Origin: Escherichia phage Pu-Krd-SF6
Length of the DNA: 64,000 nt
Reading direction: 5' to 3' (one strand)
Sequence record: PQ759886
The position numbers and the translations under genes are program-made. Below, piece by piece: positions 59,141 through 60,559 of this stretch (its first letter is position 1; each line of letters starts with the position of its first letter). A model generated the notes under the pieces. It ran no database searches. It saw only the letters and a list, made by a program, of their open reading frames with translations, and had not been told where the DNA came from.

Positions 59141-60559
59141 ATGGCTTTTACAGTTGATATAACTCCTAAAACACCTACTGGAGTTATAGATCAGACTCAG
59201 CAGTTTACTGCTACACCCAGTGGTGAAACTGGAGGTGGAACTATTACCTATGCTTGGACTGTAGATAATGTTCCACAAGATGGGGCTGAAGCAACTTTTA
59301 GTTATGTACTAAAAGGACCTGCCGGTCAAAAGACTATTAAGGTGGTTGCAACAAATACAATTCCAGATACTGATGCTGAAACAGCAGAAGCTACTACAAC
59401 TATCACAGTTCAAAATAAGACACAGACAACTACCTTAGCTGTAACTCCTAATAGTCCTCCAGAAGGAGTAATCGGAACAGCCGTTGAATTTACTGCTGCC
59501 TTAGCTTCACAGCCATCGGGCGCATCTGCTACGTATCAATGGTACGTTGACGGTTCTCCTGTGGGCGAAGCAACTTCTGCTACATTCAATTACACTCCTT
59601 CCACAAGCGGAGTTAAAACAATTAAGTGTGTAGCTCAAGTAACCGCGACAGATTATGATGCAAAGGAAGTTACTTCCAATGAAGTATCATTAACGGTTAA
59701 TAAAAAGACGCAGACAACTACCTTGGCAGTAACTCCTGATAGTCCTGCTGCTGGAGTAATTGGAACCCCAATTCAATTTACTGCTGCCTTAGCTTCTCAA
59801 CCTGATGGAGCGTCTGCTACGTATCAGTGGTATGTAGATGATTCACAAGTTGGTGGAGAAACTAACTCTACATTTAGCTATACTCCAACTACAAGTGGAG
59901 TAAAAAGAATTAAATGCGTAGCCCAAGTAACTGCAGAAAATTATAATGAAAAGGAAGTTACTTCTAATGAAGTATCATTGACAGTTAATAAGAAGACAAT
60001 GAATCCACAGGTTACATTGACTCCTCCTTCTATTAATGTTCAGCAAGATGCTTCGGCTACATTTACTGCTAACGTTACGGATGCTCCGGAAGAAGCGCAA
60101 ATTACGTATTCATGGAAGAAAGATTCTTCTCCTGTAGAAGGGTCAACTAATGTATACACCGTTGATACATCATCTGTTGGAAGTCAAACTATTGAAGTTA
60201 CTGCAACTGTTACTGCCACTGATTATGATAGCAAAACTATTACAGCAGAAGGCCAAGTTCAGGTAACTGATAAAGTTGCTCCGGAACCAGAAGGTGAATT
60301 ACCTTATGTTCATCCTCTTCCACATCGTAGCTCAGCTTATATCTGGTGCGGTTGGTGGGTTATGGATGAAATCCAAAAAATGACTGAAGAAGGTAAAGAT
60401 TGGAAAACTGAAGATCCAGATAGTAAATACTACCTGCATCGTTACACTCTTCAGAAGATGATGAAAGACTATCCAGAAGTTGATGTTCAAGAATCGCGCA
60501 ATGGATACATCATTCATAAAACTGCTTTAGAAACTGGTATCATCTATACCTATCCATAA
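59141..60559 (+). CDS. hoc: Hoc outer capsid decoration protein with an extra Ig-like domain
   Basis: 472 aa; N- and C-terminal sequences match recalled T4 Hoc (376 aa); internal ~96-aa Ig-like unit tandemly duplicated. Confidence 0.85.
   Translation: MAFTVDITPKTPTGVIDQTQQFTATPSGETGGGTITYAWTVDNVPQDGAEATFSYVLKGPAGQKTIKVVATNTIPDTDAETAEATTTITVQNKTQTTTLAVTPNSPPEGVIGTAVEFTAALASQPSGASATYQWYVDGSPVGEATSATFNYTPSTSGVKTIKCVAQVTATDYDAKEVTSNEVSLTVNKKTQTTTLAVTPDSPAAGVIGTPIQFTAALASQPDGASATYQWYVDDSQVGGETNSTFSYTPTTSGVKRIKCVAQVTAENYNEKEVTSNEVSLTVNKKTMNPQVTLTPPSINVQQDASATFTANVTDAPEEAQITYSWKKDSSPVEGSTNVYTVDTSSVGSQTIEVTATVTATDYDSKTITAEGQVQVTDKVAPEPEGELPYVHPLPHRSSAYIWCGWWVMDEIQKMTEEGKDWKTEDPDSKYYLHRYTLQKMMKDYPEVDVQESRNGYIIHKTALETGIIYTYP

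Follow-up and report, generated by a model that had tools for sequence, protein, structure and literature searches.

[quoted passage not shown] The explanation that best accommodates the observations, and one in which considerable confidence can be placed, is that old D2 cassettes have been shuffled by recombination while both copies remained under constraint. All positions given here are those of the window, the whole stretch of 64,000 nucleotides that was analyzed.

The coding sequence of this head decoration protein occupies 59141-60559 on the plus strand (472 aa and a stop codon). Its product matches T4 Hoc (PDB 5vf3_Z, 376 aa) with E=2.6e-221 in phmmer, and the gene has 100% nucleotide identity with that annotated as "Hoc-like head decoration protein" in Escherichia phages Pu-Krd-SF5 and Pu-Krd-SF7. 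It possesses its own Shine-Dalgarno sequence, AAGGA, 5' of the ATG, and is followed by an intrinsic terminator at 60564-60589 (plus strand) made up of a GGGGC-TTCG-GCCCC stem-loop (60564-60579) and a T-run; terminators are annotated at the equivalent position in Kha5h, G50 and SA20RB. The order uvsW-(segE)-inh-hoc-24.3-24.2-rnlB among the open reading frames of the window agrees with the annotated neighbors in T4, RB33, Kha5h and PP01, with inh (58451-59131) upstream of hoc and 24.3, 24.2 and rnlB downstream, and hoc therefore lies at its conserved locus. The protein also displays the N-terminal linear string of Ig-like domains of a Hoc, as seen with AlphaFold, Foldseek and Pfam PKD, and its C-terminal domain, which contains the sequence QESRNGY, is homologous to residues 281-376 of T4 Hoc. 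Every testable defining feature of Hoc is thus present, and the gene is hoc. The strand opposite the repeat described below contains no open reading frame of 60 aa or more. The GC content of hoc (0.402) is higher than that of the 64-kb window (0.358).

The original prediction, made from the letters of the sequence, had set a Hoc of 472 aa against 376 aa for that of T4. Both lengths are confirmed, by the open reading frame on one side and by 5vf3_Z and the 1131-nt hoc CDS of the T4 record on the other, and alignment of the two proteins shows that T4 Hoc has exactly one 96-aa unit fewer, the remainder being nearly identical. Two stretches align, with residues 1-106 of the window protein corresponding to T4 1-106 and residues 189-472 to T4 93-376. 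The extra unit forms part of a tandem repeat that had been described as two units of ~288 bp with roughly 80% identity, and this description holds. Tandem Repeats Finder reports 59405-59998 on the plus strand (period 288, 2.1 copies, 78% matches, score 743), an extent that agrees with the string of matches at offset 288, and a direct-repeat search returns two copies of 288 nt, spaced by exactly 288 and 78% identical. In codon register, the units comprise residues 93-188 (59417-59704) and residues 189-284 (59705-59992), both on the plus strand. The limits first proposed (59416-59703 and 59704-59991) capture the repeat but miss the codon phase by one base, which is immaterial, and the module peptides quoted with them agree with the translation.

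The two copies are identical at 226 of 288 nt (78.5%) and at 76 of 96 aa (79.2%) without a single indel, and their differences number 12, 11 and 39 at codon positions 1, 2 and 3, respectively. The longest exact match they share is 22 nt. Self-comparison of hoc recovers the predicted internal repeat at offset 288 only, the best 288-nt identity at any other offset being 44% or less, and the repeat is far beyond chance. Its extent at the DNA level takes in ~12 nt of the D1/D2 linker, which resembles the D2/D2 and D2/D3 linkers (TV-N/K-K-T). Between the units (59417-59992) GC content also differs, at 0.434 in copy 1 and 0.392 in copy 2.

The fold was modeled with AlphaFold2 from an input of 36 Hoc sequences. 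The model has a mean pLDDT of 84 and contains four all-beta domains at residues ~1-91, 93-187, 189-283 and 285-376, mostly above 90, and confidence is low for the C-terminal domain. Domain 1 (aa 1-92; 59141-59416, plus strand) aligns to T4 Hoc 1-92 and is predicted as a beta-sandwich at pLDDT ~84-93. The D2-type Ig/PKD units follow, of which copy 1 (pLDDT ~92-95) has no counterpart at its position in the T4 array and copy 2 (pLDDT ~93-96) is T4-like. Domain 3 (aa 285-378; 59993-60274, plus strand) aligns to T4 Hoc domain 3 and is likewise a predicted beta-sandwich. The best PDB matches found by Foldseek are four-domain Ig strings (E ~1e-13), including Sidekick Ig1-4, Dscam Ig1-4, ICAM-5 D1-D4 and the 4xBIg adhesin. 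The proposal of one Ig-like domain more than in T4 is accordingly upheld, by four confidently predicted beta-sandwich domains and by these structural matches. In Pfam, PKD exceeds its cut-off (37.5 bits vs 23.5) over two stretches, the best being 195-267, and Ig_3 and I-set match aa 289-373 below their cut-offs.

The C-terminal domain (aa 379-472; 60275-60556, plus strand) retains the conserved ESRNG loop and is near-identical to T4 Hoc 283-376. Both the definition of this domain and its capsid-binding role are established for Hoc (PMC10385173), and its dN/dS between phages is 0.02. Because of this near-identity to T4, the window protein would be expected to bind to the center of gp23 hexamers on the mature capsid. 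Two short repeats were noted in domain 3. One is a 12-nt micro-tandem repeat, GTTACTGCAACT, present in 2.1 copies at 60197-60229 and encoding VTATVTAT. The other is a 21-nt motif, GTTACTGCCACTGATTATGAT, encoding VTATDYD, which recurs at equivalent sites of the D2 units (59639-59659 and 59927-59947); this recurrence across domain 3 and the D2 units is a trace of their shared Ig-domain origin.

The term tandem duplication had been applied to this array at the outset, and it stands as a description of the arrangement, though not of something that happened recently in this phage. A duplication that took place in situ and is private to this lineage, through slippage or unequal sister exchange followed by drift, would account for the perfect head-to-tail layout, the equal lengths and the lack of indels. 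The two copies would then be expected to be mutually closest and to show low synonymous divergence, and neither is the case. Their dS is ~0.92 and their dN 0.12 (Nei-Gojobori), with dN/dS ~0.13, and this synonymous divergence is three to ten times that of the hoc flanks (D1, and D3 with the C-terminal domain) between phages (dS 0.08-0.32). Copy 1 has 94% nucleotide identity with copy 1 of PP01 and 91-92% with the sole units of RB33 and of Kha5h, as against 80.6% with the T4 unit and 78.5% with its own neighbor, and copy 2 has 97% identity with copy 2 of PP01 and 92% with the sole unit of T4. Many independent isolates moreover share the two-type array, one of them recorded as a Mosigvirus. Because of this divergence and of the closer relationship of each copy to the units of other phages, the duplication is neither recent nor private, and a recent origin is very improbable.

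The two modules thus probably represent old cassette types, and each is known from proteins that contain only one. Among 376-aa Hocs, the one unit of P0107 matches copy 1 with 100% amino acid identity, and that of P0115 matches copy 2 with 97.9%. Since single-unit Hocs match each copy so closely, both types serve as the sole D2 of three-Ig Hocs. The distant Hoc homologs lack a D2-type domain, their middle domains being D3-like, and provide no outgroup root for the two types. The cassette types may therefore be either paralogs, with duplication first and losses later, or alleles that were later joined by unequal crossover.

As a query, a single unit is found in 616 phage records, at 890 places with copy 1 or 891 with copy 2. 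Of 60 records sampled at even intervals, 38 contained a single place, 18 contained two and four contained three, and genomes with 1, 2 and 3 units are estimated at ~62%, 31% and 7%, figures derived from the total places and this sample as opposed to a full census. One, two and three units correspond to proteins of 376, 472 and 568 aa, and these lengths account for 78, 29 and seven, respectively, of the best 120 protein clusters. Many full-length genes of 1419 nt are 95-98% identical to the window hoc, among them those of PP01, SA20RB, IME340 and BF15, and a three-unit hoc was confirmed in YUEEL01 and UGKSEcP2. The four-Ig Hoc of the window is thus a common and ordinary variant, present in about one sequenced relative in three. 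In the record of moskry (MN850651), a phage classified as Mosigvirus, Hoc is of the 472-aa form and the array was marked as a repeat_region by the depositors. Both moskry and mar009P5 (LR027391) are filed under Mosigvirus, with hoc 91-95% identical to Tequatrovirus D2 units, so that either hoc has probably passed from one genus to another or the classification is at fault.

Several records with hoc carry unexpected names. A T4-type hoc occurs in the 32-kb Staphylococcus phage SAJK-IND (MG010123.1; 93.8% identity over the full gene) and another in Pseudomonas phage PsgM02F (OR584013.1), which points to mislabeled or contaminated records. Several of the protein clusters bear the name "PKD domain-containing protein [Escherichia coli]" or "endonuclease [Shigella sonnei]", a sign that contigs of phages may have been deposited within bacterial assemblies. 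Escherichia phage vB_EcoM_G50 (MK327942; L032:1225-2385) has a Hoc of 386 aa whose single D2 unit contains a 10-aa (30-nt) micro-duplication, NEKEVTSNED/NEKEVTSNEV, and this is a second, smaller type of hoc length variation.

Comparison with characterized and deposited Hoc proteins places the window protein within a known family. T4 Hoc (PDB 5vf3, 8t1x and others) shares its gene, locus, D1, D3 and capsid-binding domain, but has one D2 unit in place of two, and copy 1 of the window is only ~80% identical to that unit. The 472-aa proteins of Pu-Krd-SF5 and Pu-Krd-SF7, PP01, SA20RB, IME340 and BF15, which go by the names Hoc, head outer capsid and PKD domain protein in their records, have an architecture identical to that of the window (nucleotide identity 100% for Pu-Krd-SF5 and Pu-Krd-SF7, 95-97% for the rest), and 472-aa Tequatrovirus Hocs differ from it in allelic detail of loop residues only. 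The 568-570-aa proteins of YUEEL01, UGKSEcP1/2, EC101 and TOPO13 belong to the same cassette system with three D2-type units and five Ig domains, the third unit being a further cassette type that is also found as a single copy. Beyond these close relatives, the number of Ig domains varies in phiPNJ-9 (two), PMBT63 (four) and Muldoon (ten), which are distant homologs that have gained or lost other domains. Distant homologs from IMG/VR (L012, L013, L018, L021 and L025) range from ~280 aa (2 Ig) to 545 aa (~5 Ig). Two of them (L012 and L013; 472 and 471 aa) contain four Ig domains through a duplicated unit that is D3-like, not D2-like, and by sequence comparison appear to have reached this number independently. 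Such independent expansions, from two to five Ig domains, indicate that the family as a whole readily gains and loses Ig units.

At the DNA level, the D2 units are mosaics. The T4 unit is of type 2, carrying copy-2-like sites, except for its last ~60 nt, where copy-1-type sites appear. The RB33 unit is of type 1 and ends as type 2, the Kha5h unit passes from type 2 to type 1, and the IME339 unit is a mosaic with multiple switches between type-1 and type-2 sites. In a recombination test that covered 15 units from eight genes, 41% of informative site pairs failed the four-gamete test, and a PHI-type permutation gave p ~0.0005. The two-unit hoc of moskry and the one-unit hoc of mar009P5 have flanks that are 98-99% identical, and differ in D1 (87%) and in the extra unit. 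The mar009P5 unit is 95% identical to copy 2 of moskry, and the difference between the two genes looks like an imported patch with a crossover at the unit start. IME339 (376 aa) and IME340 (472 aa) were considered as a clean pair illustrating gain or loss and were rejected, given that the IME339 unit is mosaic and that hoc differs throughout. A drop in identity downstream of the array in both of these comparisons is an effect of indel register and does not represent real divergence.

Neighboring units are never closely similar. Within 37 arrays from distinct 90% clusters, unit identity reaches at most 85.4% (amino acids), with a median of 79%, a distribution to be read with the phylogenetic non-independence of the arrays in mind, since a single old duplication would look alike. 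Between proteins, 41.5% of unit pairs exceed 85.4% amino acid identity. Genetic work on T4 has established that recombination is efficient in this phage. We infer that near-identical tandem repeats of 288 bp are quickly collapsed by phage recombination and that only diverged neighbors persist. Under the favored explanation, arrays of one, two or three cassettes coexist in the Tequatrovirus population, and their copy number and cassette content would change through homologous or unequal recombination between hoc alleles. Such recombination may exploit the nearly invariant framework and the sequence at the unit edges, giving rise to mosaic units in which variation lies mostly in loops, and purifying selection retains both copies as folded, functional domains.

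A homing endonuclease gene lies close to the array. SegE, a GIY-YIG enzyme of 205 aa, is encoded between uvsW and inh at 57784-58401 on the minus strand, ~0.7 kb upstream of hoc, and shares 99% identity with the SegE annotated in Kha5h. The window, T4 and Kha5h possess the gene, which is absent, with uvsW abutting inh, from RB33, PP01, YUEEL01, UGKSEcP2, IME339/340, SA20RB, G50, moskry and mar009P5. SegE is reported to cleave uvsW and to drive co-conversion of flanking markers (PMC2988022), and for this reason it might contribute to hoc mosaicism. A sequence resembling a T4 late promoter, TATAAATA, occurs between inh and segE (~58430-58437, minus strand), immediately upstream of the latter, and a late promoter is annotated at the corresponding uvsW-inh position in SA20RB.

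Variation within the units is concentrated in loops. Across ~157 units, mean entropy is 0.57 in loops and 0.23 in strands as assigned from the predicted structure (Mann-Whitney p=0.034), and of the 20 amino acid differences between the window copies, 15 fall in loops, a class that covers 45% of the unit. Pooled over 18 DNA units, dN/dS is 0.18, and it falls to 0.03 in 74 of the 96 codons. For the 22 most variable codons the ratio is 0.89, a value biased upward by the very selection of those codons. Pooled dS is 0.50 for D2 as compared with 0.17-0.25 for the rest of the gene. The low dN/dS, above all that of the framework codons, indicates that both copies are maintained as folded domains.

These values bear on whether the extra unit contributes to the virion at all. 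Hoc is non-essential in T4, so that relaxed constraint is conceivable and the unit might be a decaying or non-functional remnant, or even an artifact of assembly, adding nothing to the particle. This can hardly be credited, given an intact reading frame, the low dN/dS both between the copies and in the framework codons, the confident prediction of both units and the occurrence of the same architecture in many independently sequenced genomes; as for an artifact, copies with 78% identity are too different for mis-assembly of a repeat.

The same evidence can be read as the mark of a diversification device, in which D2 cassettes under positive selection for antigenic or ligand variation, or a pair resembling a diversity-generating retroelement (DGR), vary the capsid surface. 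Mosaic units, variable loops over a conserved framework, dissimilar array neighbors, D2 lineages older than the rest of the gene and a nearby segE that promotes local co-conversion all fit such a device. There is, however, no nonsynonymous excess, and positive diversifying selection on the loops is unsupported by the overall dN/dS of the units or by that of their most variable codons. A template/variable pair of the DGR type is excluded, as the 32 transitions and 30 transversions between the copies involve all four bases in each copy and lack the adenine-specific signature. Ordinary T4 recombination in mixed infections would yield the same mosaicism, and in 13 inspected loci copy number does not follow the presence or absence of segE. 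A dedicated device is therefore quite unlikely. A related suggestion, that the D2 cassettes constitute a population-level shuffling system in which selection keeps neighbors dissimilar and several ancient loop haplotypes in circulation, is also unlikely. Were it true, neighbor dissimilarity would stabilize the arrays against T4 homologous recombination, copy number (1-3) and loop combination would tune adhesion or antibody escape to gut or animal niches, and SegE-induced co-conversion next door would possibly help. Shuffling of constrained cassettes by recombination remains the favored explanation.

The consequences of an additional unit can be considered in light of what is known of Hoc. In T4, Hoc is a fiber of ~180 Å in which three Ig-like domains stand on a conserved capsid-binding domain, and its homologs bear variable strings of such domains, that of Serratia phage Muldoon reaching ten (PMC10385173). 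A Hoc-like protein with four Ig domains is reported from Klebsiella phage PMBT63 by authors who state that Hoc varies widely in domain number (PMC13435897). Binding of MUC2 has been mapped to S183-L184-T185 of domain 2 in the two-Ig Hoc of phiPNJ-9 (PMC11853027) and to E29/G33 of domain 1 in the Hoc of phiPNJ-6 (PMC11150434), and the substitution D246N in domain 3 of T4 Hoc alters glycan binding (PMC9271167). The window protein carries E29 and G33 in domain 1, a NEVSLT sequence in each D2 unit (residues 180-185 and 276-281) and, at D342, the equivalent of T4 D246 in domain 3. The NEVSLT motif is implicated elsewhere in fucose/MUC2 binding. For the BAM model of mucus-adherent Ig display, which is defined by binding of Ig-like domains to mucin glycans, the comparison covered the conservation of E29/G33 and NEVSLT.

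Most likely, the extra module would make the fiber longer by one Ig domain than its three-Ig counterpart in T4, and would present a second D2 surface with a second NEVSLT motif. We infer that a longer fiber with a second D2 would change both the reach and the valency of adhesion to mucus or to other surfaces, as well as antigenicity. An effect on interactions with surfaces or mucus had been raised from the sequence, and it appears in agreement with the Hoc literature. A gain from the second D2 is nevertheless not assured, because the mucin sites map differently, to domain 1 in phiPNJ-6, domain 2 in phiPNJ-9 and, by mutation, domain 3 in T4.

The exact gene was already deposited and annotated in GenBank, and variable Ig number in Hoc was already published, so current understanding is unchanged. 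The literature searched provided general statements on domain number, and no explicit description of a 1-3 copy polymorphism of D2 in Tequatrovirus was found there. Three cassette types, present in one to three copies, with mosaic units and ever-dissimilar neighbors, thus represent a modest population-genetic refinement and not a new kind of system. Hoc is a capsid fiber implicated in mucus adherence and phage immunogenicity, and a display scaffold for the engineering of T4 nanoparticles. For the characterization of phages for therapy and the choice of Hoc scaffolds, it is useful to know that the Hoc of about one in three T4-like coliphages has four Ig domains, and likewise that the extra module is in all probability an ancient D2 cassette, of a kind that would be shuffled between phages.
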